From assembly GCA_016217735.1 (NCBI GenBank), contig JACRGQ010000013.1, positions 10,428-74,427 of the forward strand: 64,000 nt of DNA, written 5' to 3'. The translations under genes and the position numbers were made by a program. This document shows positions 29,511 to 64,000 of the stretch, one piece after another (positions within the stretch are counted from its first letter, which is position 1; each line of letters begins with the position of its first letter). The notes below the pieces were generated by a model. That model made no database searches and was not told the origin of the DNA. It worked only from the letters and a program-made list of their open reading frames with translations. This DNA comes from Nitrospinota bacterium. Its GTDB lineage: Bacteria > Nitrospinota_A > UBA7883 > JACRGQ01.

Positions 29511-29717
29511 ATGAAAATTATGGAAAAGGATGTTCTTCAAAAAGAAAACGTTGAGTGTTTGGAAACTCTTTATTTTGAGATTATGAATCCCCAAAACCCA
29601 TTTTTTAACAAGGAAATCGCTCCATCTCCTCCATCGCTGTCGCTTAACCAACCTTCATTGCTTACAACAGTTGAAAGCATTACAACTTATAGCGCTTACG
29701 AAAATCAGCACACCTAA
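29511..29717 (+). CDS. Small ORF (68 aa) translationally coupled (TAATG) to the Clp-fold protease gene
   Basis: Low-GC; its stop overlaps the downstream ATG by 1 nt; a TATAAT box overlaps its first ATG. Confidence 0.3.
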   Translation: MKIMEKDVLQKENVECLETLYFEIMNPQNPFFNKEIAPSPPSLSLNQPSLLTTVESITTYSAYENQHT

Positions 29718-30643
29718 TGCCCAACTGGAATGATGTCCTCTCAGAGATCGGGAAATATAAACAAGAATTCATACAAAACGCAAACCAATCTGTAGATATT
29801 GTCCGAAGAAAATATTTAAAGCTTCTTTTCGAAGAAACCGACCGAAACATCATCGCTTACTATTCAGGATTTCTTTCAAAGCCCGGCATTGAACAATCGC
29901 AAATATCTGATGAAGATAAGAATGCATTTATGATGGCTATACATAAACTTGACCGGTCGAAAGGGCTGGACCTCATTATTCACAGCGAGGGTGGAAGCAT
30001 AGCCGCCACGGAATCTATTGTTGACTATCTTCATCGGATGTTTGGAAGTGACATCAGAGCTATCGTCCCTCAAATTGCCATGTCGGCTGGTACAATGCTG
30101 GCTTGTTCTTGCAAAGAAATCATTATGGCAAAGCACTCCAACATCGGCCCAATTGATCCTTGGTTACGTGGCGTTCCGGCCCAAGGAGTAAAGGGGGAAT
30201 TTAAACGTGCATTTGAGGAAATAAAAGCAGACCCGGCAAAGCTTGCCGTTTGGCAACCGATATTGATGAAATACCAGCCTACATTTCTCAGCCAATGTGA
30301 AAATGCAATTGATTGGGCCCACACTTTCGTTAAAAATCAGCTAACTGAAATTATGTTTAGCGGAAAGGATGATGCCGTTTTACTTGCCACCAATGTTGTT
30401 ACTGCGCTTAGTAATTATGATGAAAACAAATCTCATGGCCGACATATTCATTTTGATGAGGCATTTGCGATTGGGCTAAATGTTAAGCTGATTGAAAATG
30501 ATTGCAGTGATAAATACCAAGACCTTTTATTGACGGTACATCACTGTTTTATGCACAGTCTTACCAACACGCCGTCATATAAAATGATCGAAAATCATAA
30601 CGGCGTGGCCTTCGTTAAGCAACTTGTAACAGGACAATCTTAG
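29717..30643 (+). CDS. ClpP/crotonase-fold serine protease (SDH-family / S49-like), cytoplasmic or secreted
   Basis: LIIHSEGGSIAATESIVDYL and AMSAGTMLA match the ClpP-fold oxyanion and Ser blocks; 308 aa; low GC. Confidence 0.65.
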   Translation: MPNWNDVLSEIGKYKQEFIQNANQSVDIVRRKYLKLLFEETDRNIIAYYSGFLSKPGIEQSQISDEDKNAFMMAIHKLDRSKGLDLIIHSEGGSIAATESIVDYLHRMFGSDIRAIVPQIAMSAGTMLACSCKEIIMAKHSNIGPIDPWLRGVPAQGVKGEFKRAFEEIKADPAKLAVWQPILMKYQPTFLSQCENAIDWAHTFVKNQLTEIMFSGKDDAVLLATNVVTALSNYDENKSHGRHIHFDEAFAIGLNVKLIENDCSDKYQDLLLTVHHCFMHSLTNTPSYKMIENHNGVAFVKQLVTGQS

Positions 30644-39466: not shown

Positions 39467-40240
39467 TCAAACCAGACGGAGGAGTAGCAACCCTAAAAGA
39501 GCCGCCAGCCCGGCGGGAACGATCACCTCGCCCGTGGCGCTTCCGAGCAGCAGCAGGTGGTAGATGAAGAGAAAATCCTGCTTCAGCGACATTTTGCTGC
39601 TTCCCTCCGTCCGCTGGTTGAAGACGTAGGGTACCTCGATGCTTTTTGTAAATTTCCCCCGCACCAGCACTTCGAGGAAAATCTTGAAGCCGGTCGGCGA
39701 GAGTTTTTTCAGGTTTACCCGGTCCGCCTTGAAGAGGAAACAGCCAGTGGTGGTGTCGTGAATCCCCCAGAGCGTTTTGGGGAGCAGTATTTTGGCTATG
39801 ATGTTCGCCACGTTCGATATGACCACGCGGTACCACGCCCAGTCCTGGGTGCCGCCCCCCTCCACCTTGCGGCTGGCGATGGCCATGTCGGCGTTTTCCC
39901 GCACCGCCGCTTCGTACAGGCGGCGGATGATGTCGGGCGGATGCTGCAGGTCGGAATCGATGACGGCGAAATGCGCGCCGCCCGCCGCTTCCCAGCCGCG
40001 CACCACGGCGGTGGCAAGCCCCCGCTCGGTGGTGCGGCATATCACCTTGAGGCCGGGATAGCGTTCTTTGAGAGCTTCGGCGGTCTTGGCGGTGCCGTCC
40101 GGCGAGTTGTCGTCCACCACGATCATCTCCACGGTCACGCCGCTCCCGGCAAAGCTGCCGTGCACGCGGCGGAGCAGTTCGGCGATGTTCTTCGCCTCGT
40201 TGTAGGTGGGCATTACCAGTGAAATTGCGGGGGCCGTCAT
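39467..40240 (-). CDS. GT2 polyprenol-phosphate glycosyltransferase (dolichol-P-mannose synthase-like)
   Basis: SLVMPTYNEAKNI…VVDDNSPDGT…DSDLQHPP GT2 motifs with C-terminal TM helices; start at an internal ATG. Confidence 0.8.
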   Translation of the reverse strand: MTAPAISLVMPTYNEAKNIAELLRRVHGSFAGSGVTVEMIVVDDNSPDGTAKTAEALKERYPGLKVICRTTERGLATAVVRGWEAAGGAHFAVIDSDLQHPPDIIRRLYEAAVRENADMAIASRKVEGGGTQDWAWYRVVISNVANIIAKILLPKTLWGIHDTTTGCFLFKADRVNLKKLSPTGFKIFLEVLVRGKFTKSIEVPYVFNQRTEGSSKMSLKQDFLFIYHLLLLGSATGEVIVPAGLAALLGLLLLRLV

Positions 40241-40290
40241 GCGGGGAAGTCTACCAGAAACCGCGCGCCGCGCGAAACGCCATTCCGTTT

Positions 40291-40320
40291 TTAACCACGA
40301 ATAACACGAATAGCACGAAG
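40291..40320. promoter_or_regulatory. Three tandem 9-bp iterons (NNNCACGAA) upstream of the GT2 gene
   Basis: aaCCACGAATaaCACGAATagCACGAAGag; a similar array occurs at 57026-57060. Confidence 0.3.
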
Positions 40321-40393
40321 AGGGAAGAATTTCGCCGGATATTTGGGCAATATAGCGGTATGCGGTAGAATAATTCAGGCGAGGATATAGAAA

Positions 40394-40684
40394 ATGACCA
40401 TGGAAACATTGCTCAAAGAGAAGCGGCGGGAAATCCTGCGCATTGCCCGTGAGTATGGTGCGAGCAGAATCCGTATATTTGGTTCCGTCGCGCGGGGTGA
40501 AGACCGGCCCGATAGCGATGTCGATTTTCTTGTCGAAATGGAAGATGGGCGCAGCCTTCTCGACATCGGCGGCATGCAAATGGACCTTCAAGACCTGTTG
40601 GGAAGGAAGGTGGATGTTGTTACCGAAAAAGGGATGCGCCCTCGGATAAAAGACAGGGTATCAAAAGAAGCCGTTTCCCTATGA
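40394..40684 (+). CDS. MntA-type nucleotidyltransferase antitoxin
   Basis: IFGSVARGEDRPDSDVDFLVE is the NTase GS/DxD motif; 4-nt overlap with the downstream HEPN gene. Confidence 0.8.
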   Translation: MTMETLLKEKRREILRIAREYGASRIRIFGSVARGEDRPDSDVDFLVEMEDGRSLLDIGGMQMDLQDLLGRKVDVVTEKGMRPRIKDRVSKEAVSL

Positions 40685-42519: not shown

Positions 42520-43599
42520 TTACGCCCGGTCGAGCCATTCCGTCAGCGGCGCGATTACCCGCTCCCAGCGGTAATGCCGCTCCACCCGCTCCACCCCCGC
42601 CGCGCCGAGCCGCCGCCTCTCGCCGGCATTTTGCAGCAGATGTGCGATACGTTCGGCCAGCGCGGGAAAATCGTCCTCCTCCGCCAGCAGCGCCTCCGAC
42701 CCGTCGCGCGATACCTCCGGCACCGCCCCGGCGCGGAAGGCGGCGATGGGAAGACCCGCGGCCATCGCCTCCAACAGCACCACCCCAAAATTCTCCTGCA
42801 TGCTCGGCAGGCAGAACACATCGGCGGCGCGGTATAGCGGAGCCAGCGCGGGGCCGGGGGGGATATGCCCCAACATTTCAACCGACGGCGTTAGCCCGCG
42901 CTCACGCACCAGCATGCACAGCCGCTCGAACTCCAGCCCATCACCGGCCACCATCAGCCGCGCCTCCGGGACTTTTTTCAACACCAGCGGCCAAGCGTCG
43001 GCGATGAGGCGGTCAACGCTTTTGCGCCGGTAAAGGCGCGCCACGCAGAGCAGGGTGGGGCGCGCGTCCGTCCGGGGGGGCGCGGCGCTCAGCCACGCGC
43101 GCCAATCGTCCAGAAAAAGCCCGTTGTTCATCACCCGTATTTTCGCGGCGGGGAGGCCATAGAGCGCCGCCGCCTTGCGGGCGGTGTACTCGCTCGACAC
43201 GAAAACCGCCGCCGCTTTTTCCGCGGTGCGCCGCTCCATCCGCGCCAGAAGCCGCACGGCCCCGCCGATCAAGCCGCGCTCGAAGCGGATGATATCGGCG
43301 TACAGCGCCTGCAGCATGCAGGCGTACGGCACATTGTGGGGAAAGAAAAATCCGTCCTGGTCGAATGCCACGTTCGGCATCCGCTCACGGCGGCCCATGC
43401 CGTCCCCGATGCGATAACCGAACGCCAGCCGCTGAAAAGTCGTGAGGAGATAGTTTTCGGAGGATGCGGTGAAATCGAGCGTTTCCACCCCAACGCCGCG
43501 TTGCCGCAACGCGGCGATGACGCCGTTCGCCACCGCCGAGGTGCCGCTGCCGAATCCCCCTTCGAGGGGCCATGAAGTGACGATGCGGCAGCGTTTCAT
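42520..43599 (-). CDS. Glycosyltransferase family 4
   Basis: C-terminal EGFGLVLLEAMAAGLPIAA GT4 motif; start at an internal MKRCRIV. Confidence 0.8.
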   Translation of the reverse strand: MKRCRIVTSWPLEGGFGSGTSAVANGVIAALRQRGVGVETLDFTASSENYLLTTFQRLAFGYRIGDGMGRRERMPNVAFDQDGFFFPHNVPYACMLQALYADIIRFERGLIGGAVRLLARMERRTAEKAAAVFVSSEYTARKAAALYGLPAAKIRVMNNGLFLDDWRAWLSAAPPRTDARPTLLCVARLYRRKSVDRLIADAWPLVLKKVPEARLMVAGDGLEFERLCMLVRERGLTPSVEMLGHIPPGPALAPLYRAADVFCLPSMQENFGVVLLEAMAAGLPIAAFRAGAVPEVSRDGSEALLAEEDDFPALAERIAHLLQNAGERRRLGAAGVERVERHYRWERVIAPLTEWLDRA

Positions 43600-43613
43600 G
43601 GCGCCGCCGCCGG

Positions 43614-44177
43614 CTATTTCTTGCGCTTCATCAAGTCGTCGAAATAGGCGACGATTTCGGGATCGTTCCACTCCCGCATTCCATCCGCCTGTGAAACGAT
43701 CTCCCCCTTGGGATTGATGACGAAGGTGGACGGCAACGAACTGACCCCGTACCTGTTGGATGCATCGCTGTCGGGATCGTGGAATATCTCGAAGGTGAGT
43801 CCGTATTGTTTAACGAATCTTTTCACCTTGTCGGGGCCGCCGCGGTCCACCGACACCGCCAGCACCACCATGTTCTTCGCCTTGAATTTTTTCGAGAATT
43901 CCTCCATCGAGGGCATCTCCGCCACGCAGGGGGAGCACCAGGTGGCCCAGAAATTCAGCAGCACCCATTTTCCCCGGTAGTCGCTTAATCGCGCATTGCC
44001 GCCCCCTAAACGGTTGAGCGTCAGATCCGGGGCCGGAGCACTTTCCTTGGCCGAAGCCTCCGCGTCGAAGTGGTCATGGGGATAGAAGGTGAACGAGGCC
44101 CCGTATCCCAATGCCACCGCCAGCGCCGCCAACAGCAGGCGGCGCGGCTTACGCAGCAGCAAAAGGGCGGATTTCAA
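43614..44177 (-). CDS. TlpA/ResA-like thiol-disulfide oxidoreductase (thioredoxin fold)
   Basis: [13 protein letters not shown] CxxC motif; N-terminal TM/signal. Confidence 0.8.
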
Positions 44178-53495: not shown

Positions 53496-55289
53496 TCATT
53501 CCCGCTTGACCGATTGCTCAGCTGTTCCCCCATCCGCGGCGGGCGCGCCGCCGTGGCGGGTGAACTGCATTTCGTAAACCCGCTTGTAAGCCCCCCCCGC
53601 GTTCAGCAGTTCGTCGTGCGTTCCCTGTTCCACGATGCTTCCCTTGTCCAGCACGATGATGGTGCGGGCGTTCTTGATGGTGGAGAGGCGGTGGGCGATG
53701 ACGAAGGTGGTGCGGTTCTGTATCAGGTTGTTAAGCGCCTTCTGCACTTCGATTTCCGATTTGGTGTCCAGCGCGGAGGTGGCTTCGTCCAAAATGAGGA
53801 TGGCCGGGTTTTTCAGCAGGGCGCGGGCGATGGATATCCGCTGGCGCTGGCCGCCGGAAAGGCGCGCGCCGCGCTCGCCGATGACGGTATCGTACCCCAT
53901 CGGCATTTCCATGATGAAATCGTGCGCGTAGGCGGCGCGGGCGGCGGCCTCTATCCGTTCACGCGGAATATCGCTGTGGCCGTAGGCGATGTTGTTGCGC
54001 ACCGTGTCGTTAAAAAGGAACACCTCCTGCGTGACGATGCCGATCTGTCCGCGCAGCGAGGCCAGCGTGGCGTGGCGGATGTCGGCCCCGTCGAACAGAA
54101 TCCGCCCTTCCACCGGGTCGTAAAAGCGGGGGATGAGGTCGACCAGCGTCGATTTTCCCGCGCCGCTGGTGCCGACGATGGCGAGGACGGCCCCGGCGGG
54201 AACGGCGAGTTCCACCCGGCGCAGCACCGGTTCGTTGTGGTAGGCGAATGAAACGTTTTCGAACCGTACTTCGCGCGCCACCGGGGCTATCGGCTTCGCG
54301 TCCGGCGCATCGGCGATCTCGGAGGGCGTATCGAGGATTTCAAACACGCGGGAGGCGGCCCCCATCGCCTGCTGGATTTTGTTGTACACCCGGCTCAGCT
54401 TGTTTATGGGCGCGAAGACCATGAACATCGCGGTGAGGAAGGAGAAGAAGTTCCCCACGGTGCTGTGCCCGTCGATCACCTGCATGCCGCCGTACCAGAT
54501 GATGGCCCCCACGCCGAACGCGCCGAGAAACTCCAGCAGCGGCGAGGAAAGCTCGTTTATCTTTATCGTCTTGAGCATGGTGCGGAAAAAGCCCTCGTTG
54601 TGCTCCTTGAACCGCGTCACCTCGTACCGTTCCATGCCGAAGGCCTTCACCACCCGCACGCCGGAAAACGCCTCGTGCATCAGCGAGGTGAGGTCGGCCA
54701 TCCGCTCCTGCGTGTTGCGGCTGATGGCGCGGAGTTTCCGCCCCAGCTTGCCGATCAGCAGCGCGGCGAAGGGAAAGGTGACCAGCACGAACAGCGAAAG
54801 CTTCGGGTCGCGGTAGACCAGCACCCCCAGCAGCGCGGCGGCGGTGAAACTTTCGCGGAAGAGATCGTACACCACGATGGAGATGGTGTCCTGTATCACG
54901 TTCACGTCGTTCACGATGCGCGAGACCAGCTTGCCGGTGGTGTGCCGGTGGTAGAAGGAGAGGGAAAGCCCCTGCATGTGGCCGTACAGATCGTTGCGTA
55001 TGTCGCGCACCGTCATCTGGCCGATCTTCTGCATCAGCATGCTGGCGTAATACCGCCCGATGCCGCGCAGCAGGTAGATGCCGACGATGGCGGCCGGCAG
55101 CAGCATCAGCAGGTTGCGGTCCTTCTTGATGAAGATGTCGTCCATCAGCGGCTGGATGAGGAACGCCGCGCCCCCCGCGGTGGAAGAGATCACCGCCATG
55201 CCGATGGCCGCCAGCACGAACGATCCCATGTACGGGCGGAGGTAGCGCAACAGCCGCCGGTAGTCGCGCATCGTGTTTTCAGCCGTCAT
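53496..55289 (-). CDS. msbA: ABC transporter fused permease/ATPase, MsbA-like lipid exporter
   Basis: Six-TM N-terminal domain plus GTSGAGKST, LSGGQRQRISIARA, LILDEATSALD; next to a heptosyltransferase-like gene. Confidence 0.85.
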   Translation of the reverse strand: MTAENTMRDYRRLLRYLRPYMGSFVLAAIGMAVISSTAGGAAFLIQPLMDDIFIKKDRNLLMLLPAAIVGIYLLRGIGRYYASMLMQKIGQMTVRDIRNDLYGHMQGLSLSFYHRHTTGKLVSRIVNDVNVIQDTISIVVYDLFRESFTAAALLGVLVYRDPKLSLFVLVTFPFAALLIGKLGRKLRAISRNTQERMADLTSLMHEAFSGVRVVKAFGMERYEVTRFKEHNEGFFRTMLKTIKINELSSPLLEFLGAFGVGAIIWYGGMQVIDGHSTVGNFFSFLTAMFMVFAPINKLSRVYNKIQQAMGAASRVFEILDTPSEIADAPDAKPIAPVAREVRFENVSFAYHNEPVLRRVELAVPAGAVLAIVGTSGAGKSTLVDLIPRFYDPVEGRILFDGADIRHATLASLRGQIGIVTQEVFLFNDTVRNNIAYGHSDIPRERIEAAARAAYAHDFIMEMPMGYDTVIGERGARLSGGQRQRISIARALLKNPAILILDEATSALDTKSEIEVQKALNNLIQNRTTFVIAHRLSTIKNARTIIVLDKGSIVEQGTHDELLNAGGAYKRVYEMQFTRHGGAPAADGGTAEQSVKRE

Positions 55290-56302
55290 AATCTCTCTTT
55301 CACGGCGGCGGCCGCTTCGTCGGCGGTCAGCCGGTCCATGCAATCCCAATACGGGCATTGTTCTTTAACGCACACGTCGCACATTGGCACGTCGGGGCGC
55401 AGGGCGGCGTCGCGCGTTCCTATCGGGCCCCACCGCCGCGGCAGGCAAACCCGGATAGGGCAGTATATCCCAACGGCGGGAGTGCCGACAGCCCCGGCGA
55501 TGTGCAACGGCCCGGTGCTGGGGGCGACGAAAACGTCGAGCCTGTGTATGAAAGCGGCCAGTTCCTTGAGGTGCGCCCCCGCAAACCGTTTTGGCGTTGT
55601 GGCGCAGGCCGCCGCCACCGCGTCGACGATTCCGGCATCCGCCGCGCCTCCCATAAGGATGACGTTGTTTCCCTCGGCGCCCAGGATGTCGATCAGCCGG
55701 GCGTACTGCTCCGGCTTCCAGTTGCGCGCGCTTCCCCCCATGCCGGGGAATACGCCGATGTTTTTCCGTGACGGATCGAGCAACGCCGCCGCCGCGCCGA
55801 TGGCGTCCGGCGTAACGGGAAGCATGCTTCTCCGCAGCGGCGGAACGCCGAGCGGCGCGAGGAGATCGAGATTGTAATCCGCTTCGTGCCTCTCCCCCCG
55901 GCTGCGGCGCTGGGGGATGGCGGTGTTGTAAAAGATGCGCGCCAGCTTGCTGGCGGGGCCGATGCGCACCGGCACCCCCGCGCGCCACACGGCGAGCGAT
56001 ACCCAAAAATCGGAGTACAGGTGCAGCGCCGCGTCGAATTTTTTGAGGCGCAGGATGCCAGCCAGCGGCGCGGTGTTATTCCACGACGGCTTCTCGTCGG
56101 TATCCAGCGTGAGCAGTTCGTCGATGGCGGGGTGCCCCTCCAATAGCGGCGCGACCGTCGGCCGCACCAGCATGGCGATTTTCCAGCCCGGTTTTTCCAT
56201 GCGCAGCGACACCAGCACCGGGGTGGATAGGATCACGTCGCCGATGCGGTCGGGACGGATGACAAGGATGCGCGCGTTATCGGGCAGAACTATCGGCCCC
56301 AT
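55286..56302 (-). CDS. Glycosyltransferase family 9 (ADP-heptose:LPS heptosyltransferase-like) with C-terminal Cys cluster
   Basis: ILVIRPDRIGDVILSTP N-terminus typical of GT9; C-terminal CDVCVKEQCPYWDC. The annotated N-terminal extension is a translation of repeat copy C. Confidence 0.8.
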   Translation of the reverse strand: MGPIVLPDNARILVIRPDRIGDVILSTPVLVSLRMEKPGWKIAMLVRPTVAPLLEGHPAIDELLTLDTDEKPSWNNTAPLAGILRLKKFDAALHLYSDFWVSLAVWRAGVPVRIGPASKLARIFYNTAIPQRRSRGERHEADYNLDLLAPLGVPPLRRSMLPVTPDAIGAAAALLDPSRKNIGVFPGMGGSARNWKPEQYARLIDILGAEGNNVILMGGAADAGIVDAVAAACATTPKRFAGAHLKELAAFIHRLDVFVAPSTGPLHIAGAVGTPAVGIYCPIRVCLPRRWGPIGTRDAALRPDVPMCDVCVKEQCPYWDCMDRLTADEAAAAVKERL

Positions 56303-56369
56303 GTCATCCTGAGCCGCAGGCGAAGGATCTCTTTCCGGAACGGGATTCTTCGCTACGCTCAGAATGACA
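56302..56369. repeat. Palindromic intergenic repeat, family 1, copy C (inverted relative to copy A), abutting the GT9 start codon
   Basis: Reverse complement TGTCATTCTGAGCGTAGCGAAGAATCCCGTTCCGGAAAGAGATCCTTCGCCTGCGGCTCAGGATGACA. Confidence 0.6.
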
Positions 56370-56406
56370 GGCATAACTGGTTTTTTACCACCTAGCTGGC
56401 ATCCTG

Positions 56407-56967
56407 CTAGTGCGGCATCTGCCCGGCGCCGTGGCCGAGGCGGGAGTAGAAGCGGCTCAACACCGGGTCGGGGAAGAAGAGGTCGCTTTCATCGAGGTAT
56501 TTCAAAACGGAAAGCGCCCAGTACGCCTCGTCCGGCGTTTCGATGATGGCGGTTTCGTTTCCCTTGTAGCGTTCCATCGCCTCGGCCACCGCTTCGTTCA
56601 TCGGCGGGCCTTGCCGCCGGGCGGTGATGGAAAGGGGCCGCAGCGGGCTGAGATGGAAAATCTTGAGCCCCGCCAGTTCCGCCGGCAGATCGCCGCTTGC
56701 AAATTCCTCTATCGGTATGCCGTCGGCGTCGGGGATGTGCGGGCCGCCCAGCGTGGCGATGTATATCGGCGCGGCCTGGATGCGCGCCTGCTCGGCGGTG
56801 CCGGTGCGCACGGAACTCATGCCGTTGGCGTGCGGCCCCACCACCACGAAATGCCAGATGCCGTCCTCCACGTTGAAGGGGCGGCGGTGGACGATAGTCC
56901 CCTCCAGCACCTCTTGCGCCTTGTCCATTTTTTTGCGGTCGCTGTGCCGCAACGATACCCGTTTCAT
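56407..56967 (-). CDS. Hypothetical protein (186 aa)
   Basis: ORF with good coding bias; no recognised motif. Confidence 0.5.
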   Translation of the reverse strand: MKRVSLRHSDRKKMDKAQEVLEGTIVHRRPFNVEDGIWHFVVVGPHANGMSSVRTGTAEQARIQAAPIYIATLGGPHIPDADGIPIEEFASGDLPAELAGLKIFHLSPLRPLSITARRQGPPMNEAVAEAMERYKGNETAIIETPDEAYWALSVLKYLDESDLFFPDPVLSRFYSRLGHGAGQMPH

Positions 56968-57025: not shown

Positions 57026-57145
57026 TTTAACCACGAAGAACACAAAAGACACGAATAAAGAAAAAAGAGCGGTTTAAAAGGAAAATGTATTTTTATCCCC
57101 TTCTTCTGTAACTTTATATTCGTGTTATTCGCGGCCTTCGTGGTC
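57026..57145. promoter_or_regulatory. CACGAA 9-bp iteron array (57026-57060) and its inverted partner (57118-57145) flanking an AT-rich spacer
   Basis: TTTAACCACGAAGAACACAAAAGACACGAATAAAG … ATTCGTGTTATTCGCGGCCTTCGTGGTC; related to the 40291-40320 array. Confidence 0.35.
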
Positions 57146-58691
57146 AAAACTTCAGGAAGCGGCCGTCGGGGCGGACGCCGACGCGGTAGCCCGCATCGAG
57201 CGAGGCGAGGATAAGCTCCACCCGTTCATAGCCGCGCCGCTCGTTGTTGTTATACAGCGCCACGGCGAGGTGGTGATGTTTTCCGCCGCTCCACCAGCGG
57301 GCAAAAGCTTCCGGCTCGAAGTGCGCGCCGGGATAGACCGCCACCTCGACGGGCAGCCCCCACCGCCGCACGGCCTCCGCCCCCGCCCCGTTGGTAACGA
57401 CGGTGATGGCCGCATGCGGAAAATATTTCGCCAGCGTGCGGGCGGCGAGATGGCTTTGATAATCGGGGGCGGAACGGAACAGCAGGATGGAGGTTATTTT
57501 ATCCGGCTGCGTGAAGGTGCGCTTAAGCGTGGCCAGCATGTCGCCCGCATATGCGTCCGGCCGCACGGTGAAGTATTCGTGCAGCGATGGACAGCCGCTT
57601 TGGATGCATCCTTTCATTTCGCCCCGTATGAACGATGCGCGCAAATCTTGCGCCGCCGGGCCGTTCCAGATTTCGTCGAAAGATTGCTCCCGCACGTTGC
57701 CCAATATGGTGGAGTTGGCGCAGCAGCAGAGCACGTTGCCGTTTTCGTGAATGTCTCCCGTCACCCACGGCGCGGGGCAAACCGCTTCCGCGTCGGTTGG
57801 CGCAACCTTTCGCGCGGCGGTCTCCAGGAAGCAGGCCTGATCCTCCACCTCAATGCCGTGTTCGGCGTAAATCTTTTCCAGCGCGGCGCGGATGCCCGCC
57901 AGTTCAGCCGCGCCGAATTTGTTGGCATCAAAGACCTCCAGCGCCATTTCACCCTGAAACGAGCGGACGATTTTTTCCACTTCGGTGATGTCGCTGGGCG
58001 TTGTTTGCCCCTCCTTCGCCGCCATCTCCTGTTCCAGCACCTGCTGGTAATCGAAGCCGAGCACGTTGTTGAGCTTTACGATGCACTGCTTGTGGCCGCC
58101 CACCGCCGCCAGTTTTTCCGCCACGGCGGGAAGGCCGCGCACGGTGGCGTTCATCAGGATGGTGTTGAAGTTGATGCGGGGCGCATCGTCTTTGCCGAGG
58201 CCGCGTTCGCGTTTCATCCGGGCGAGGCGTTCCACGTTCTCCAGCACCGTCGGCAGCAGCGGCTTGCCCCGGATTTTTTCGTAGATGGCGGGATCGACGG
58301 TATCGATGGAGAAGTGGATGCTCTCGAACCGCTCCAGCGCCAGCTTCGCCATAGCCCCGTTCATCAGCGTGCCGTTGGTGTAGGCGTTTATCTTGAGGTG
58401 CGTGTGGTGCTTGATGAGCGCGTCGAATATTTGGGCCGCTTCGGGGTTGGCGTTTTCGCCCATCCAGAGCGGTTCGCCCCCGGCCAGGAACACGCGCTGC
58501 GCTTTTTCCAGCCACCGGTCGATGGCATTAGGGTCGATGGTCACCGGCAAGCCGTCCACCAGCGAGTGGCCGCACATGAAGCAGGCGAGGTTGCACCTGC
58601 CGGTGGAAAGGATCGTCAGGTGCGTCGGCCCGCTTTGGGGGGCGATGACCCGTTTCTCCCAGTCGCCGTATGCGGGGTGATCGTATCTCAA
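57144..58691 (-). CDS. Radical SAM protein with SPASM/twitch domain and C-terminal extension
   Basis: CNLACFMC CxxxCxxC; SPASM cysteines CPAPW…LCCCANS…CIQSGC; about 150-aa extra C-terminal domain. Confidence 0.8.
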   Translation of the reverse strand: MRYDHPAYGDWEKRVIAPQSGPTHLTILSTGRCNLACFMCGHSLVDGLPVTIDPNAIDRWLEKAQRVFLAGGEPLWMGENANPEAAQIFDALIKHHTHLKINAYTNGTLMNGAMAKLALERFESIHFSIDTVDPAIYEKIRGKPLLPTVLENVERLARMKRERGLGKDDAPRINFNTILMNATVRGLPAVAEKLAAVGGHKQCIVKLNNVLGFDYQQVLEQEMAAKEGQTTPSDITEVEKIVRSFQGEMALEVFDANKFGAAELAGIRAALEKIYAEHGIEVEDQACFLETAARKVAPTDAEAVCPAPWVTGDIHENGNVLCCCANSTILGNVREQSFDEIWNGPAAQDLRASFIRGEMKGCIQSGCPSLHEYFTVRPDAYAGDMLATLKRTFTQPDKITSILLFRSAPDYQSHLAARTLAKYFPHAAITVVTNGAGAEAVRRWGLPVEVAVYPGAHFEPEAFARWWSGGKHHHLAVALYNNNERRGYERVELILASLDAGYRVGVRPDGRFLKF

Positions 58692-60064
58692 GATTTGTCC
58701 TCTGCCTCGCGCGCCGCTTCATCGCAGCCCAGCCAGTTTACATATTCGCAGTACGGCGCGTACAGTATCGCTTTCAGCGGGGCCATTCCGCGCTGTTCGG
58801 CGAGGAAGCGGCGGAACGACGCGGCGCGTCCGGGAAGTTTCTTGTAAAAGGCGCGGCAGACTTCGCATTCCTTCCCTCTTAGATAAGTGGAAAAAAGCGT
58901 GCGGTGGTGCTTCAGGCAGCGGGCAAAGTTGTCGAACATCGACGTGTTGTGCGAATGGTGGACCGCCGCATCGGGCCGGTAAGCGATGGCAAGGCCGCGC
59001 CGTTGCATCTCGCGCGCCCAAAGTCCGTCTTCCCCCCAGCCGACGTGTTCGTCGAACGGCAGATCAAGTACCAGCTTGCGCGGCATTGCGGCGTTGGCGT
59101 TGCTGAAGAAGGGATTGTCCCGGCTCCGCATCGGCTTTGGGCCGAAGGCGTCGCTTAAAATCTTGGCCTCGAAGTGTCCGTTCCACCCTTCTATCGGGAG
59201 TTCGCGCCCGTAAACGCCCGCCACCGTGTCATCCGCGAGCGGAGCGGTGAGCGCGGTCAGCCACTCGCGGTGCGCCGGGACGGCGTGGGCGCTGAGGTTC
59301 ACGACGATGCGCCCGCGCGCCAGCCGCGCGCCGAGGTTCAGCGCCGCGCCATAACTGAACGCGCGTTTGCCCACGCTGAAGAGGCGCACCGGGTGGCGCA
59401 GCGCGATCTCCCGCGTGGCGTCGGTCGATTCGGAATCGATGACGATCACCTCGCCGGAAAAACCGATTTGGGAAAAGACCATCTCCAGCGTTTTGCCGAT
59501 ATGGGATTCTTCGTTGTAGCTGCGGATGACGACGGATACGCCGACCACGCCGCCGGCGGAATCATCCCTGATCGTCCGGTAGTCCAACGTGCCGGGAAAA
59601 ACGGGGCGCGGCACCTTATCGCCGGTGAAGCCGAGGAAGGGGCGCGCAACGCCGAGCAGCGCGATGACCGCCGCGTGCCACCGTTCCTCCGGGCTGAGCA
59701 AAAGCGAAAATGCGCCGCGTTCCAGCGTCCGCAACGTGCCGTCCGGCAGGTGTTCAATAATTTCGCCGTCGAATATCCAGCGGACAAAAAGCCGGAGAAG
59801 GCCGTACCCTTCGCCGTCCGGGTTGTTGAGCGGCAGCACGATGGTTGCCGCATCGATGGCGCGTACGGCGTTCCATATGTTCGCCCCGCTTTGAATGGAG
59901 AAGGGGCCGTTCCCCCAGCTTATGTAGTTTTTTTCGGCGGCGAACGGCGAAGCGTCAGGCCCGGCAAACCAGATATGTTCTTTGGAAAATCCGGCGAGCG
60001 CCGCATCGGCGGCCGCCCGCGTTTGCGCGGCGGGGGCCGTGCAGAAAACCACCGCCCGCTTCAT
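58688..60064 (-). CDS. Glycosyltransferase family 2 with about 200-aa N-terminal extra domain
   Basis: VSVVIRSYNE…VIDSESTD GT2 DxD region; 4-nt overlap with the rSAM gene. Confidence 0.75.
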   Translation of the reverse strand: MKRAVVFCTAPAAQTRAAADAALAGFSKEHIWFAGPDASPFAAEKNYISWGNGPFSIQSGANIWNAVRAIDAATIVLPLNNPDGEGYGLLRLFVRWIFDGEIIEHLPDGTLRTLERGAFSLLLSPEERWHAAVIALLGVARPFLGFTGDKVPRPVFPGTLDYRTIRDDSAGGVVGVSVVIRSYNEESHIGKTLEMVFSQIGFSGEVIVIDSESTDATREIALRHPVRLFSVGKRAFSYGAALNLGARLARGRIVVNLSAHAVPAHREWLTALTAPLADDTVAGVYGRELPIEGWNGHFEAKILSDAFGPKPMRSRDNPFFSNANAAMPRKLVLDLPFDEHVGWGEDGLWAREMQRRGLAIAYRPDAAVHHSHNTSMFDNFARCLKHHRTLFSTYLRGKECEVCRAFYKKLPGRAASFRRFLAEQRGMAPLKAILYAPYCEYVNWLGCDEAAREAEDKS

Positions 60065-60066
60065 CG

Positions 60067-62721
60067 CTACCGGGTTTCGGCCTCGATGTAGATGTATTCG
60101 CCGCGCGTGAGTTTTTGGGCGATCATCGCTTCTTCCGTTTTTTTCAGGTCGGCCAGCAGCGCGATATCCGCTTTGGAGAAGTCGATGGCGGCGGCGACAA
60201 GGCCGGTGAAGGCGATGTGCGAGCTGTGCGCCACCACATCCATGTGGCGGCGGATGGTCTCTTCCAGCAGAAAGCTCCCCACGTCTTCGTAGGGGGAGAG
60301 CGCTTCGTCAAGGTGCGGGCCGTTTCCGTTTCCATTTGCGTTGCGCGGCAGGTGGACCAGCCGCGCGGTGCCGAGGAACGAATTCGCCAATTCACCGTGC
60401 TCTTTCGTGTTGCCCCCCCCGTGGTCGAAGGCGACCAGCCGTCCGCCCGGATTCAGCGCTTTTTTCACGGCGCGCATCAGGCGCGCGAGGTCGGCGATGT
60501 GGTGGAGCGAATCCCACGCCACGATGCGGTCGAAGGTGCGCCCGCTTTCTTCCAAAAATTTTAGCGCGTCCCCTTGCAGGTATTCGATCTTCACGCCGTT
60601 TTTGGCGGCGTATTGTTTCGCGGTCTCTATCCGGTCGCGGCTCACGTCGATGCCGGTCACTTTCTTGCCGCGCCGCGCCAGTTCAAGGGCCAGCCACCCC
60701 GCACCGCAGCCGATCTCCAGCACGGTTTCCACCTCCGGCTTCGCCACGGCGTCTATCAGCCGCTGTTTTTCGGCACCGCGCAAGACGGCTTCCACCTTCG
60801 GGTCGGCCCAAAAGTCGTTCAATTGCGCCACTTTGGTGGCATGTTGCAGGTCGACCCACGGGGCGGTCACCGCGCCGTTGCCGGAGAAATCTTTTTCAAA
60901 CTTGTCCCAGAACGCCGATTCGATGTCCAGCGTCGCGCCCTGGTCGAGCAGTATCCAGTAAAATCGCCGCGCCATCAGGTGGTTGGGGTTGAGGTGCATG
61001 CAGTGTTCAAAGTGGCGGCGGGCCGTGGCGGTATCGCCGTCCTGATACGCCATCCAGCCGAGGTGGAAGTGCGCCGCCGCGCCGTGCTGTATGGCGTCGT
61101 CGTAATCGGCGGCGGTGGCAACGATGTACTGGAATATCTCGCGCGCTTTCTCGAAAAAGCCGAGCCGCTCGTGAACGGAGGCGACGACGTGGCGCGCGCG
61201 CAGCACCTGCGGGTGGGCGTTTATGATGCCGTCCGCCATTGCCAGCGTCGCTTCGTTATCGCCGGTGTTAAAGAGGGCGGTGAGGTGTTGCAGTTTTTTG
61301 CGCACTTCGTCCCGCTGTCCGGGCGGCAGCCACGTTTTTTCCGCCGCGATGCAGCGGGTGGCGACCGCCGCCTTGCCGTGCGTGGCCTTCTCGAAGCGCT
61401 TCCACATGATCTCGACGGTCCCCTTTATCTCCTCGGCGGAGTAATTGGGGTACGAGAGCACCGAGCCGTTGATGCCGTTGAACTCTTCCGGGTCGTCGGT
61501 GGTGAGCCAGCCGTGCTCTTTCGCTTTTTCGTGGAACGGGGTGCCGGGGTGCGGCACGGCGATGGATGCCTGCCAACTGGATAGAAGCCCCTGCTCCAGC
61601 AGCTTCGCGCCGTATTCGATGGTCGCCACGTCCCCCGCGCGGGTGCTGCCGGACGCGCCGATGATGAACGTGCCGTACATCTCGATGTCCAGCTTCTTCG
61701 CCTCGCGCAAAATCTCCTGCAGGCGGTCGGCCTTCGTTTTGCGGCCGATGCTTTCGCTGGTGGCGGGGTCGATGGTCTCGATGCCGATGCGCAGCTTGTA
61801 GTAGCCGGCCTTTTTCAGCTTTTCCAGAATCTCTTCGTCCAGCCGCTGGTGGTTCGCCATCGCCTCGTAGTGCAGATCGCTGTTGCCGCTTTGGATGATG
61901 GCGTCGCACAGTTCCAGCGCCGCGCTCTTCTTTACGATGTGCGTCTCCTCGTCGAAGAACACCCCCTCGATGGACGGGTACTTGCGGCGCAGCGTGGTTA
62001 TTTCGTTGATGATGCGCGCGGGACTGCGGGGCCGCCAGTTCGGTTTCTCGTAGTAGACGGTTCCCGCCACGCAGAAATCGCAGCTATAGGGGCAGCCGCG
62101 GCTGCCGTGTATCTCGATGGATGTGTACTTGGTCCAGCGGCAGCCGCCGGGGTATGCGTAATCGATGCGGCGGATGTCGTCGTCTTCCGGGTCGGGGAGG
62201 GAATCGATGTCCAGCACCTTGCGGTACCCGTTGGGATGGAGGCCCGGTATGGTTTTGGGATCGCCGCCGCGCAGGATGTCGCGCACCGTCTCTTCGTACT
62301 CGCCCACGCAGGCGTAATCGCAACCGTCGGCCAGCACCTGCGCCGGGAAGACGGTGGAGTACTGCCCGGTCATGATGATGGTGGCGCCGAATTTCTGCTT
62401 GATCGCGCGGGCCACTTTCATCGTCTCGTGGTAAGTGACGGTGTCGGTCTCGAATATCACCACGTCCGGCTTCTGCCACTCCAGCCAGCGGATGTACTCC
62501 TCGGCGGTGAAGCGCAGCCATGTGCCGTCGATCATCTTGATGGCGTGTTGCGGAAAATCGCGCTTGAGCAGGCTGCTGAGGTAGGCGAGTTGGTACGGGA
62601 AGAAGATGAAAACCGGGTAGTTATGGAAAATGGAGGTCCACCGGCTGGGAAAGGGGCAGGGATAGCGGTTGCCCGGAAATTTCCCCGGCGGGTTGGCGAT
62701 AATGATTTTTTTCTGTTTCAA
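60067..62721 (-). CDS. Fusion protein: B12-binding radical SAM domain + TPR-like region + class-I SAM methyltransferase domain
   Basis: N-terminal B12-binding fold, CPYSCDFC CxxxCxxC, central TPR-like helices, C-terminal VLEIGCGAGWLALELA motif I; 884 aa. Confidence 0.75.
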   Translation of the reverse strand: MKQKKIIIANPPGKFPGNRYPCPFPSRWTSIFHNYPVFIFFPYQLAYLSSLLKRDFPQHAIKMIDGTWLRFTAEEYIRWLEWQKPDVVIFETDTVTYHETMKVARAIKQKFGATIIMTGQYSTVFPAQVLADGCDYACVGEYEETVRDILRGGDPKTIPGLHPNGYRKVLDIDSLPDPEDDDIRRIDYAYPGGCRWTKYTSIEIHGSRGCPYSCDFCVAGTVYYEKPNWRPRSPARIINEITTLRRKYPSIEGVFFDEETHIVKKSAALELCDAIIQSGNSDLHYEAMANHQRLDEEILEKLKKAGYYKLRIGIETIDPATSESIGRKTKADRLQEILREAKKLDIEMYGTFIIGASGSTRAGDVATIEYGAKLLEQGLLSSWQASIAVPHPGTPFHEKAKEHGWLTTDDPEEFNGINGSVLSYPNYSAEEIKGTVEIMWKRFEKATHGKAAVATRCIAAEKTWLPPGQRDEVRKKLQHLTALFNTGDNEATLAMADGIINAHPQVLRARHVVASVHERLGFFEKAREIFQYIVATAADYDDAIQHGAAAHFHLGWMAYQDGDTATARRHFEHCMHLNPNHLMARRFYWILLDQGATLDIESAFWDKFEKDFSGNGAVTAPWVDLQHATKVAQLNDFWADPKVEAVLRGAEKQRLIDAVAKPEVETVLEIGCGAGWLALELARRGKKVTGIDVSRDRIETAKQYAAKNGVKIEYLQGDALKFLEESGRTFDRIVAWDSLHHIADLARLMRAVKKALNPGGRLVAFDHGGGNTKEHGELANSFLGTARLVHLPRNANGNGNGPHLDEALSPYEDVGSFLLEETIRRHMDVVAHSSHIAFTGLVAAAIDFSKADIALLADLKKTEEAMIAQKLTRGEYIYIEAETR

Positions 62722-62978
62722 GGTTGCCTCAATATAGCTTTTTCGGCATCAAGAGGCAAAAACCTTACTTGAAACCGTGTTTTATTCCTTTGACGGATTT
62801 TTGCGGAAGATCGCCGCTATGGCGTTCTTGCCGACTCGCGCCCGGGTACAACAGGTTTAAGGAGCCGCAGGATTGGCAATTCAATCTGCGGCGGAAATGG
62901 TCGAAAGACCGCAACCTGTTGTTGGCCCACAAGGGTCAAGGTTTCTTGTTTCCTGCGGAAACAACCACAGGATAAATC

Positions 62979-63995
62979 CTATGGTACCCGGCAAAGGCCT
63001 TTGATATCGACGAAGCGGTAGTCGACGTTGAAGGCCCAGAACGCTTTGGCGTTCGCGCGGGCGGCGAAGGCGGTGACGTTCTTGTAAAAAAGAAGGTCGT
63101 TGGTATTGAAGCAGCAGACCAGCAGATCGTATACATCTTTTATCTTTTGCGCGTCGGCATCGGCAAAGCCGTTTTGCCCCAGCCGGATTACGTTTGCCGC
63201 GCCGTTGAAGGGGGCGGCATCCACCCCCGGCTGCAAAACGATGTCGATGGCGGCGTCGGGATAGAGTCGGCGCAGGGCGGAGAAACCGTCGGCGGCGTGC
63301 TCCATCGGCGAACTGCGGAGGAAGAGTATCCTCTTCGGCGCGGCGCGGTTCAGTTCGTAGAAGGAGAGGTGCGGCAGCGCGTCGCTGAATATCGACGGCC
63401 TCTTCACCGGATTTTTGCAAAAATCGAGCAGCGGTTTTAATGCTCGTTCCCAATGGAACGCCTTTTTTGCTTCTTTGATCCGTTTTCGCATCGCCTTGTT
63501 TTCCGCCGGGTGCGAGGCCATGTGGGCGATACGCTGGGCCAGCGCTTTGTCGTCGCCGAACGGGAAGATATGCCCCAGTTTGTTGTCCTCGATAAAGCCG
63601 CTTAATGTGTTGCCGGGATTGGTGAGCACCGGCAGGTTGCCCCAGAGGTAGTCCGCCACCCGGATGCGGAATGAGAAGCGGTTCTCGATGTGATCGCGGA
63701 ACGTGGCGATGCCGGCGTCGGCTTCGGTTAGGTAGTGCTCGTGCTCTTCATAGGGCACCCAATCGGCGTGGAAGAAAACATTCTTGCCCAGCAGCTTTTC
63801 GCGCGTGACGTAGCGCATCACTTCGGCGTACGCCTCGGTCGGCTTGCTGGTGGCGGGGTGCTTGTGCCCGGCGAATACCAGCTTCGCGCGCGGGCAGGTT
63901 TTCAAAAGCCGTTTCATCGCTTTCACCGGCGTGAGGCAGTCGTACCAGTTCCAGAGCGACCCGCCCCACACGATGATGAAATCTTTTTTTCCCAC
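62979..63995 (-). CDS. Glycosyltransferase-like protein (C-terminal GT-B half plus extra domain), N-terminus probably beyond the window
   Basis: GT1/GT4-like C-terminal region (…FAGHKHP…GIATFRDHIENRFSFRIRVADYLWGNLPVL); the ORF reaches the window edge. Confidence 0.45.
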   Translation of the reverse strand: MGKKDFIIVWGGSLWNWYDCLTPVKAMKRLLKTCPRAKLVFAGHKHPATSKPTEAYAEVMRYVTREKLLGKNVFFHADWVPYEEHEHYLTEADAGIATFRDHIENRFSFRIRVADYLWGNLPVLTNPGNTLSGFIEDNKLGHIFPFGDDKALAQRIAHMASHPAENKAMRKRIKEAKKAFHWERALKPLLDFCKNPVKRPSIFSDALPHLSFYELNRAAPKRILFLRSSPMEHAADGFSALRRLYPDAAIDIVLQPGVDAAPFNGAANVIRLGQNGFADADAQKIKDVYDLLVCCFNTNDLLFYKNVTAFAARANAKAFWAFNVDYRFVDIKGLCRVP

Positions 63996-64000
63996 GCCGG

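Follow-up and report, generated by a model that had tools for sequence, protein, structure and literature searches.

The locus described here raises the question of why two radical S-adenosylmethionine (SAM) enzymes are encoded among glycosyltransferase-like genes in a Nitrospinota bacterium, and what these genes make together. It lies at the end of the window, the whole 64,000-nt stretch of contig JACRGQ010000013.1 that we analysed, and consists of four genes on the minus strand, as are all the features of them located below. Only the 3' part of g1 (62979..>64000) is present, truncated at the window end; it encodes a divergent protein resembling the glycosyltransferase (GT) families GT1/GT4, with a C-terminal domain that we call X. 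The 884-aa product of g2 (60067..62721, TTG start) combines a B12-binding-like domain, a radical SAM domain, tetratricopeptide repeats (TPR) and a class I methyltransferase. In g3 (58688..60064, 458 aa) an X domain and a linker helix precede a GT2-like catalytic domain, and g4 (57144..58691, 515 aa, TTG start) joins a radical SAM domain, a twitch-like auxiliary domain and another X. We favour, with moderate confidence, the view that g1 to g4 encode the cytoplasmic enzymes that make a glycoconjugate in an assembly line which is anchored in the membrane and conserved across Nitrospinota. Judged from sequence, the genes appear to form a functional unit of glycan metabolism, with interchangeable TPR and X modules or covalent fusion.

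What could be read from the genomes comprises the order and coupling of the genes, their domains and conservation, the swapping and fusion of domains, and the surroundings of relatives. A scan of the genome collection with the family alignment recovered 15 loci, of which 14 were titled Nitrospinota and one (L012) Nitrospirae; a 16th, remote match came from Acidobacteriaceae. The family is widespread in metagenome-assembled genomes (MAGs) of Nitrospinaceae. A core of four genes, encoding a GT-C/TPR membrane protein of about 780 aa, a GT4-like protein, a B12-radical SAM-TPR protein and a GT2-like protein, is syntenic in 10 distinct loci with flanks, all from Nitrospinota MAGs save L005, the record of which is titled Nitrospirae. 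The GT-C/TPR gene of the window cluster lies just past the window end. In L001, where it is 1 nt from the g1 orthologue, the gene 3' of it is near-identical to the window part of g1, and an 87%-identity homologue of the L001 membrane protein (P0170) is on record. By comparison with the core, g4 occurs in some lineages only.

The domains of this core are not fixed to their partners. In four lineages (the window and L001, which make up the window group, L005 and L014) the GT4-like protein ends in X; in the others its C-terminus is a TPR that shares homology with the one in the membrane protein. The GT2 domain occurs either as X-GT2 or fused directly behind the radical SAM-TPR protein, with X lost and the linker kept. 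From lineage to lineage, X, TPR and direct fusion thus stand in for one another. Other fusions join radical SAM, TPR and GT2 in one chain, or a B12-radical SAM enzyme with a g4-like one. We rejected chance juxtaposition of the cluster genes, which is contradicted by the synteny and the fusions. A preliminary description of this DNA had proposed that the genes act as a glycan-modification unit, and this is borne out by the synteny of the cassette across Nitrospinota, by the fusions of its components and by the glycan context of their relatives.

That context is seen most clearly around relatives of the g2 core at 43-48% identity, which sit in polysaccharide and nucleotide-sugar clusters. The L008 locus holds Wzx, Wzy, Wzz, GT2s and GT4s; L027 a nucleotidyltransferase, an epimerase, a glycosyltransferase and Wzy; and L028 NeuB, DegT, CMP-sugar synthetase and formyltransferases. 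Wzx, Wzy or a chain-length regulator was found only around L008 and L027, and none was present among the genes at 52.5-64 kb of the window or in the Nitrospinota loci. Beside the g2-like radical SAM genes of L027 and L008 stand separate methyltransferases with about 290 aa of homology to that of g2 (E 3e-44 and E 5e-42, respectively). The g2-like enzyme of L008 is fused to a g4-like radical SAM enzyme (E 6e-13); the g4 core matches the SPASM half of the B12-radical SAM fusion P0055 at E 6e-13. A further locus, L029, was found via the X domain alone. It encodes two epimerases, a B12-radical SAM enzyme related only distantly to the g2 core (24% identity), a GHMP kinase, a nucleotidyltransferase, DegT, GT2-TPR and X-GT4 proteins and a g4-like radical SAM enzyme, and appears to hold the component set of the window cluster together with genes of nucleotide-sugar biosynthesis. 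As a side observation, the g4-like radical SAM/SPASM protein of L029 (L029:11861..13603) has an N-terminal extension of about 250 aa that looks, by eye, like a cytidylyl- or nucleotidyl-transferase; such an extension would hint that this radical SAM family acts at the level of nucleotide sugars.

Three of the genes, g2, g3 and g4, are translationally coupled: the g2 stop and the g3 start are separated by a 2-nt gap (TAG-CG-ATG) and g3 and g4 overlap by 4 nt (TTGA). All four genes were said to be coupled in the preliminary description; the four are indeed present on the minus strand, and the coupling does not extend to g1, which lies 257 nt from g2. The spacer between them (62722..62978) has a hairpin directly 3' of the g1 stop and a promoter-like segment with a ribosome-binding site. 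A TTGCCT-17-TATATT site at 62759..62731 and a GAGG ribosome-binding site precede the TTG of g2, and the final ~60 bp of the spacer hardly vary in L001 and L010, where the DNA further upstream diverges. An Rfam scan of 52-64 kb gave no riboswitch or other RNA, the cobalamin riboswitch included. In L001, a 94%-identical relative, an AT-rich insertion of about 600 bp that is not in the window separates g1 from g2 (L001:9144..10000); it contains two small open reading frames (ORFs) of 49 and 92 aa without family match. A search for small ORFs in both intergenic gaps of the window found nothing conserved, and the two ORFs of L001 were missing.

The preliminary description had noted extra domains in g1, g3 and g4. 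These three segments, at the C-terminus of g1 (62982..63335, about residues 222-339 of the partial translation), the N-terminus of g3 (59690..60064, residues 1-125) and the C-terminus of g4 (57147..57494, residues 400-515), proved on sequence comparison to be one Rossmann-like domain of about 115 aa, our X. A hidden Markov model (HMM) of X was built solely from the C-terminal extensions of a clade of ~590-aa B12-radical SAM proteins, with the window sequences excluded. Run against all 530 ORFs of the window, it returned the g1, g3 and g4 regions as its top three matches (E 6e-4 to 1.3e-3, with g1 at E 9e-4). The three regions also align in register in a multiple alignment, and pairwise BLASTP among them gives weak matches (E 0.001 and 0.08). 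A weak match of the model at ORF 29717..30643 was dismissed as a ClpP-like protease.

Searches of Pfam, NCBIfam and PDB sequences with X gave nothing significant, and a profile comparison with the g2 family alignment, including its B12-binding domain, revealed no relationship. The AlphaFold2 model of the g4 copy has a predicted local distance difference test (pLDDT) score of 94.8 and a beta-alpha, Rossmann-like fold, with the topology of the N-terminal acceptor-binding Rossmann domain of GT9 enzymes. The weak PDB matches of the X profile include PnsB1 and 3tov, an hhalign comparison aligns X with residues 31-91 of the GT9 protein encoded in the window (P 0.003), and the only recurring NCBIfam matches are heptosyltransferases (best E 4.5e-4). 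In all, four tests independent of one another, each weak on its own, concur that X is most like the N-terminal half of GT9 heptosyltransferases. We regard this as resemblance and not membership: X is a single domain of ~115 aa without a PF01075 match, where GT9 enzymes have two domains.

In an exhaustive profile search the X family grew to 713 cluster representatives, of which 148 scored E<=1e-10. Many stand alone as proteins of 160-200 aa. Among 62 multi-domain representatives, the partners were GT1/GT4 (18), radical SAM (17; 8 with a B12 domain and 6 with SPASM), GT2 (6), MptE-like (3), methyltransferase (2), DegT (1) and GT61 (1) domains, and also sulfatase. Because the partners are mostly glycosyltransferases and radical SAM enzymes, X is probably an accessory domain of glycan-pathway enzymes. 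One locus of a different kind was encountered, L026, in which paralogous B12-radical SAM-X proteins (594 and 592 aa) lie on either side of a 209-aa gene without known function (L026:7496..11779). There are no obvious glycan genes around it and a CobW-type gene follows 4.5 kb downstream, unlike the setting in polysaccharide clusters.

The preliminary description had read g2 as a fusion of B12-dependent radical SAM, TPR and class I methyltransferase domains, and each of these was matched in Pfam; indeed, all the domains it named in g1 to g4 were found in Pfam or NCBIfam. The protein (MBI5636756.1, 100% identity) begins with a B12-binding-like Rossmann domain (62275..62598, residues 42-149; PF02310 36.9 bits, cut-off 32.1), followed by the radical SAM core (61657..62103, residues 207-355; PF04055 60.8 bits), the TPR segment (60922..61314, about residues 470-600; TPR_2 28.4 bits) and the methyltransferase domain (60070..60804, about residues 640-884; Methyltransf_25 80.6 bits). 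The CxxxCxxC motif of the core (CPYSCDFC, 62071..62094) provides C210, C214 and C217, which are invariant in alignments of 25 and 27 homologues; a variation of these cysteines, which would have counted against the preliminary description, is thus not seen. The SAM-binding loop of the methyltransferase contains the motif EIGCGAGW, including the GCGAGW seen earlier, and the PDB matches of this domain are generic O-, C- and N-methyltransferases. As PF02310 is above its cut-off, g2 carries a sequence-recognisable N-terminal B12-binding Rossmann domain; the binding of cobalamin itself, which no sequence signature marks universally, is putative.

What g2 does with these domains is less easily read. 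It had been argued that a class B enzyme would perform C- or P-methylation, and this argument did not hold. The best curated NCBIfam family for g2 is HpnJ (TIGR03471, an equivalog; 154.9 bits, E 3.2e-45, near full-length), and HpnJ is a proposed ring-contracting non-methylase that acts on a lipid-attached sugar (PMC9204698). The nearest solved structure in a PDB profile search is AprD4 (6fd2, E 1.8e-15), which has a similar Rossmann domain, yet binds no cobalamin (PMC12931638). HpnJ, BchE and AprD4 are all not methylases (PMC9204698, PMC12931638), and none of the solved class B methylases in the PDB was matched by the g2 profile at E<=1e-3. Methylation by g2 is thus not implied, since HpnJ is a proposed non-methylase and AprD4 binds no cobalamin; for the latter reason AprD4 cannot decide on the use of cobalamin by g2 either. 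The reaction may be either a methylation or a rearrangement or dehydration of the HpnJ/AprD4 type, a choice that is unproven, with cobalamin use putative.

The match to HpnJ, by far the best that g2 has among curated families, could also be taken to place the cluster in a hopanoid or other lipid head-group pathway like that of HpnI and HpnJ, in which the GT2 would add an amino sugar and the B12-domain radical SAM enzyme would contract its ring. The coupling of a GT2 gene to g2 recalls hpnI beside hpnJ (PMC9204698). We consider such a pathway very improbable here. The score of 155 bits falls far below the equivalog cut-off of 577.6 bits, on which ground we rejected g2 as an HpnJ orthologue; g3 has no HpnI match in NCBIfam; no squalene-hopene cyclase or hpn gene was present among the ORFs examined in the window or the compared loci; and the relatives of g2 sit in polysaccharide clusters.

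The methyltransferase part of g2 was found, among the loci compared, only in the window group and L005. A close relative, L013, is 84% identical to g2 over the common region and otherwise collinear with the window, and lacks the 855 bp at 60089..60942. This indel (L013:2171..2208) removes exactly the methyltransferase domain and retains the last ~7 codons of the gene. As the deep-branching L005 possesses the domain, the indel has the look of a loss in frame, and the fusion to the methyltransferase is dispensable. In the TPR of g2 we observed a set of invariant or near-invariant residues across 27 homologues (H551, C574, H576 and H581, plus P579 and W589; pattern AHFHLG...HFxxCMHLNPNH). The His/Cys set suggests a possible metal site within a TPR.

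The second radical SAM enzyme, g4, had been described as a radical SAM/SPASM protein with a C-terminal extension. The radical SAM domain (PF04055 46.7 bits), a match to PF13186 (41.5 bits) and the extension, which is X, are all present. However, g4 does not have the seven-Cys SPASM pattern (CX9-15GX4C ... CX2CX5CX3C ... C), which serves two auxiliary clusters, in spite of its PF13186 match. Its CxxxCxxC (58572..58595; C33, C37 and C40) is conserved, and its auxiliary region (57591..57779, residues 305-367) has five conserved cysteines only (C305, C323, C324, C362 and C367), arranged as CX12GX4C, an adjacent C and CX4C; the CX2CX5CX3C block is missing. We therefore regard the domain as twitch-like, and the five cysteines would fit one auxiliary cluster. 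The best NCBIfam match is a twitch-domain radical SAM family (76.9 bits, cut-off 170), and in the PDB BtrN ranks first (E 2.2e-9), ahead of viperins and of the sugar-nucleoside decarboxylase BlsE. The nearest characterised relatives of g4 thus act on carbohydrates or nucleotides, not peptides. The earlier argument that SPASM enzymes usually act on peptides is not applicable to g4, because the protein is twitch-like and BtrN acts on a carbohydrate. A canonical SPASM peptide maturase was rejected as an identity for g4, as the Cys pattern is wrong and the best solved match is BtrN.

The two glycosyltransferase-like proteins were correctly named in outline, each with X as its extra domain. In g1 the family assignment is marginal (Glycos_transf_1, PF00534, 33.0 bits against a cut-off of 26.4); the full-length orthologue in L001 (546 aa) scores 31.9 bits, and g1 had no match in the PDB sequence search. 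The catalytic domain of g3 (58916..59539, residues 176-383) matches Glycos_transf_2 (PF00535) at 67.4 bits against a cut-off of 23.3. It has no canonical DxD: the D-A-D of the GT2 structure 6yv7 aligns to S258-A-H260 of g3 (59287..59295), and the surrounding LSAHA is kept in all orthologues, the forms fused to radical SAM proteins included. A second motif further downstream, HHSHN (residues ~368-372, about 58949..58963), is kept equally widely. The S-A-H and HHSHN motifs may mark an atypical metal site or a non-canonical activity. The linker helix of g3 (59621..59677, residues 130-148) is moderately hydrophobic, with a Kyte-Doolittle score of 1.36 in the window and 2.25, like a transmembrane (TM) helix, in the L005 orthologue; it may serve as a membrane anchor.

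The membrane protein of the core was informative through fold comparison alone, since searches of PDB and NCBIfam sequences with its TM part gave nothing. Its AlphaFold2 model (pLDDT 90.9) matches the GT-C fold in Foldseek at E 4e-6. The Pfam PMT_2 cut-off is reached by one homologue only, and the GT-C assignment holds at the level of fold only. D33 and D35 after TM1 are invariant, in line with the conserved acidic residues that GT-C enzymes have in their first extracytoplasmic loop. In homologues of about 1130 aa the TPR is followed, without an intervening TM helix, by a GT2 domain, and the distribution of lysine and arginine fits a model with 10 TM helices and both termini inside. From these homologues and the charge distribution, we infer that the TPR is cytoplasmic.

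Oligosaccharyltransferases (STT3, AglB and PglB) are among the top fold matches of the membrane protein, which raises the possibility that the cluster modifies proteins or peptides instead. This could be a general protein glycosylation, with the GT-C protein as oligosaccharyltransferase and the TPR binding the protein, or a pathway like those for peptides made on the ribosome and modified after translation (RiPPs), with the radical SAM enzymes and the GT2 acting on a peptide. The TPR-glycosyltransferase fusion recalls OGT; g2 matches RiPP radical SAM families (ApyD 2.3e-25, a RiPP C-methyltransferase family 1.9e-11); the best NCBIfam match of g3 is the mycofactocin glycosyltransferase MftF (1.7e-19); and g4 weakly matches several peptide maturases. 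However, the RiPP, MftF and maturase scores are all far under their cut-offs, and the nearest solved relative of g4 is BtrN and not a peptide maturase. No small ORF that could encode a conserved precursor is present in the gaps of the window; those of 49 and 92 aa are confined to L001. The TPRs are predicted to be cytoplasmic, whereas the substrates of oligosaccharyltransferases are periplasmic, and the membrane protein has no WWDYG-type periplasmic domain. As the relatives sit in polysaccharide and nucleoside diphosphate (NDP)-sugar clusters as well, we regard a protein or peptide substrate as unlikely.

Downstream of g4, on the same strand, lie three genes that bear on a link to lipopolysaccharide (LPS). 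A 186-aa gene, u186 (56407..56967), has no Pfam or NCBIfam match and is followed by a GT9 heptosyltransferase-like gene (55286..56374; PF01075 88.9 bits) and by an MsbA-type ABC exporter (53496..55358; TIGR02203 619 bits, cut-off 602). The msbA and heptosyltransferase neighbours named in the preliminary description are thus in place, the latter beyond u186, and the membership of both in the system is uncertain. u186 is conserved (55-94% identity) right upstream of the GT9-msbA pair wherever that pair trails the cluster. Only the window group and the L005 lineage, at 60% identity, have all three next to the cluster; elsewhere in the phylum they do not adjoin it.

These neighbours would allow the cluster to decorate the LPS core or lipid A with a C-methylated sugar, with the GT9 cooperating and MsbA exporting the product. 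The three genes lie behind the cluster, on its strand, in the window and also in L001, L010, L013 and the deep-branching L005, and MsbA is above the cut-off of the lipid A exporter equivalog. The nearest relatives of X in fold and sequence are the acceptor-binding N-domains of LPS heptosyltransferases, and the membrane protein has ArnT, a lipid A-modifying GT-C enzyme, among its fold matches. Nevertheless, most Nitrospinota cores (L006, L007, L014-L021) have no adjoining GT9 or msbA, and a 176-nt AT-rich gap and the separate gene u186, of unknown function, lie between g4 and the GT9 gene. C-methylation is not implied by a family whose members HpnJ, BchE and AprD4 are non-methylases (PMC9204698, PMC12931638), and the methyltransferase domain is dispensable. 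A link to LPS is possible but weak because the GT9/msbA adjacency is limited to the two lineages nearest the window, and we hold the LPS scheme as a whole to be rather doubtful; the protein or RiPP pathway and the hopanoid pathway are less likely still. Two other glycosyltransferase genes of the window, at 39467..40591 (minus strand; GT2, 112.6 bits, with an N-terminal extension) and 42520..43671 (minus strand; a typical GT4), may belong to other envelope pathways.

For the assembly line that we favour, a sequence of steps can be proposed, in which the physical complex, the substrate class, each chemical step and the acceptor are what we infer. The GT-C/TPR membrane protein would be both the anchor and the final transferase, and at the periplasmic face it would use a donor linked to polyprenyl phosphate. 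A lipid- or nucleotide-linked sugar would be built by the GT4-like g1 and the GT2-like g3, and from this sugar the radical SAM domain of g2 would take a hydrogen atom; g2 would then rearrange or deoxygenate the sugar in the manner of HpnJ or AprD4, or C-methylate it via cobalamin. The fused class I methyltransferase could add an optional O- or N-methyl group, and the twitch-type g4 could carry out a second radical reaction, such as an oxidation of the BtrN type. TPR and X would be interchangeable docking or acceptor-binding modules that keep the enzymes together. The acceptor could be the core of LPS or a different glycolipid, or else a polysaccharide or protein. Of the unusual modified sugar or lipid first suggested for this locus, the glycan unit was upheld, while C-methylation, the use of cobalamin and the link to LPS are unproven.

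Several observations weigh against this assembly line. Its support is comparative genomics throughout, and the substrate, the product and the protein contacts are putative. The lack of a canonical DxD in g3 and the score of g1, barely above its family cut-off, mean that one or the other might not be an active transferase. The window cluster itself has no flippase, Wzx/Wzy or sugar-nucleotide gene. In L010 and L011 (90-91% identity), the 10 kb upstream of g2 are devoid of a GT-C/TPR or g1 homologue, and the operon of g2 to g4 may for this reason function without the neighbouring core genes. Finally, the TPR, the GT-C fold of oligosaccharyltransferase type and the RiPP-like radical SAM matches would also fit a protein substrate.

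A more far-reaching idea can be put forward only tentatively. Radical SAM enzymes may be built into a glycosyltransferase complex on a GT-C scaffold, with recruitment by TPR and X, in an undescribed assembly line of Nitrospinota and scattered bacteria. The product might be a sugar with a modified carbon skeleton (C-methylated, ring-contracted or deoxygenated), made while on a carrier lipid and not as a nucleotide sugar.

In the ocean, nitrite is oxidised mainly by Nitrospinota, whose envelope chemistry is, to our knowledge, essentially unknown. A phylum-wide radical SAM cassette predicts an unusual surface sugar in these bacteria, possibly usable as a biomarker. X is a candidate new domain family without a Pfam or NCBIfam model and could mark enzymes of glycan pathways, and the interchange of X, TPR and fusion offers a concrete hypothesis for how multi-enzyme pathways assemble. 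The public annotation of the cluster proteins is generic, and in the literature we found no description of the cassette, of the X domain or of a B12-domain radical SAM enzyme in a surface-polysaccharide or envelope-glycan cluster. Because we found no such B12-radical SAM enzyme in the literature consulted, the recurring module of methyltransferase, B12-radical SAM, twitch/SPASM radical SAM, GT2 and GT4 proteins may represent a new pool of sugar chemistry. The features that appear to be undescribed are the integrated radical SAM enzymes, the GT-C scaffold with its cytoplasmic TPR and the new adaptor domain.

Known systems share parts of this design. The HpnI/HpnJ system, which serves the biosynthesis of bacteriohopanepolyol cyclitol ethers, has, like the window, a B12-binding-domain radical SAM enzyme beside a GT2, and its HpnJ, a proposed non-methylase, acts on a lipid-attached sugar (PMC9204698). 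However, g2 scores about a quarter of the HpnJ cut-off and has additional TPR and methyltransferase domains, the GT2 of the window is not HpnI-like, there is no hopanoid context, and the cassette adds a GT-C and a GT4-like protein. AprD4 and BtrN are the closest solved structures by sequence to the g2 core and to the twitch region of g4, respectively; both act on carbohydrate or cyclitol substrates and tailor the sugars of aminoglycosides, and BtrN defines the single-cluster twitch domain to which g4 is similar. The similarity is nevertheless remote and partial, no aminoglycoside genes are present, and g4 has X in addition.

The cobalamin-dependent (class B) methylases GenK, Fom3 and TokK resemble g2 in that an N-terminal B12-type Rossmann domain precedes a radical SAM core in which CxxxCxxC is present. 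None of them is a close family match, and g2 is fused to a class I methyltransferase that they do not need. Compared with WaaC, WaaF and the GT9-like PnsB1, X shares the topology of the GT9 N-domain, with weak sequence matches; unlike WaaC and WaaF, it is only about 115 aa long, is devoid of the donor-binding C-terminal domain and occurs alone or fused to other enzymes. The ArnC/ArnT and GtrB/Gtr systems, three-component systems of periplasmic glycosylation that pair a GT2 polyprenyl-phosphate glycosyltransferase with a GT-C enzyme, differ from that of the window, in which no flippase was identified. Unlike GtrB and ArnC, g3 has neither the DxD nor C-terminal TM helices. The GT-C protein of the window system carries a predicted cytoplasmic TPR, and the cassette includes, as integral parts, a GT4-like protein and two radical SAM enzymes.

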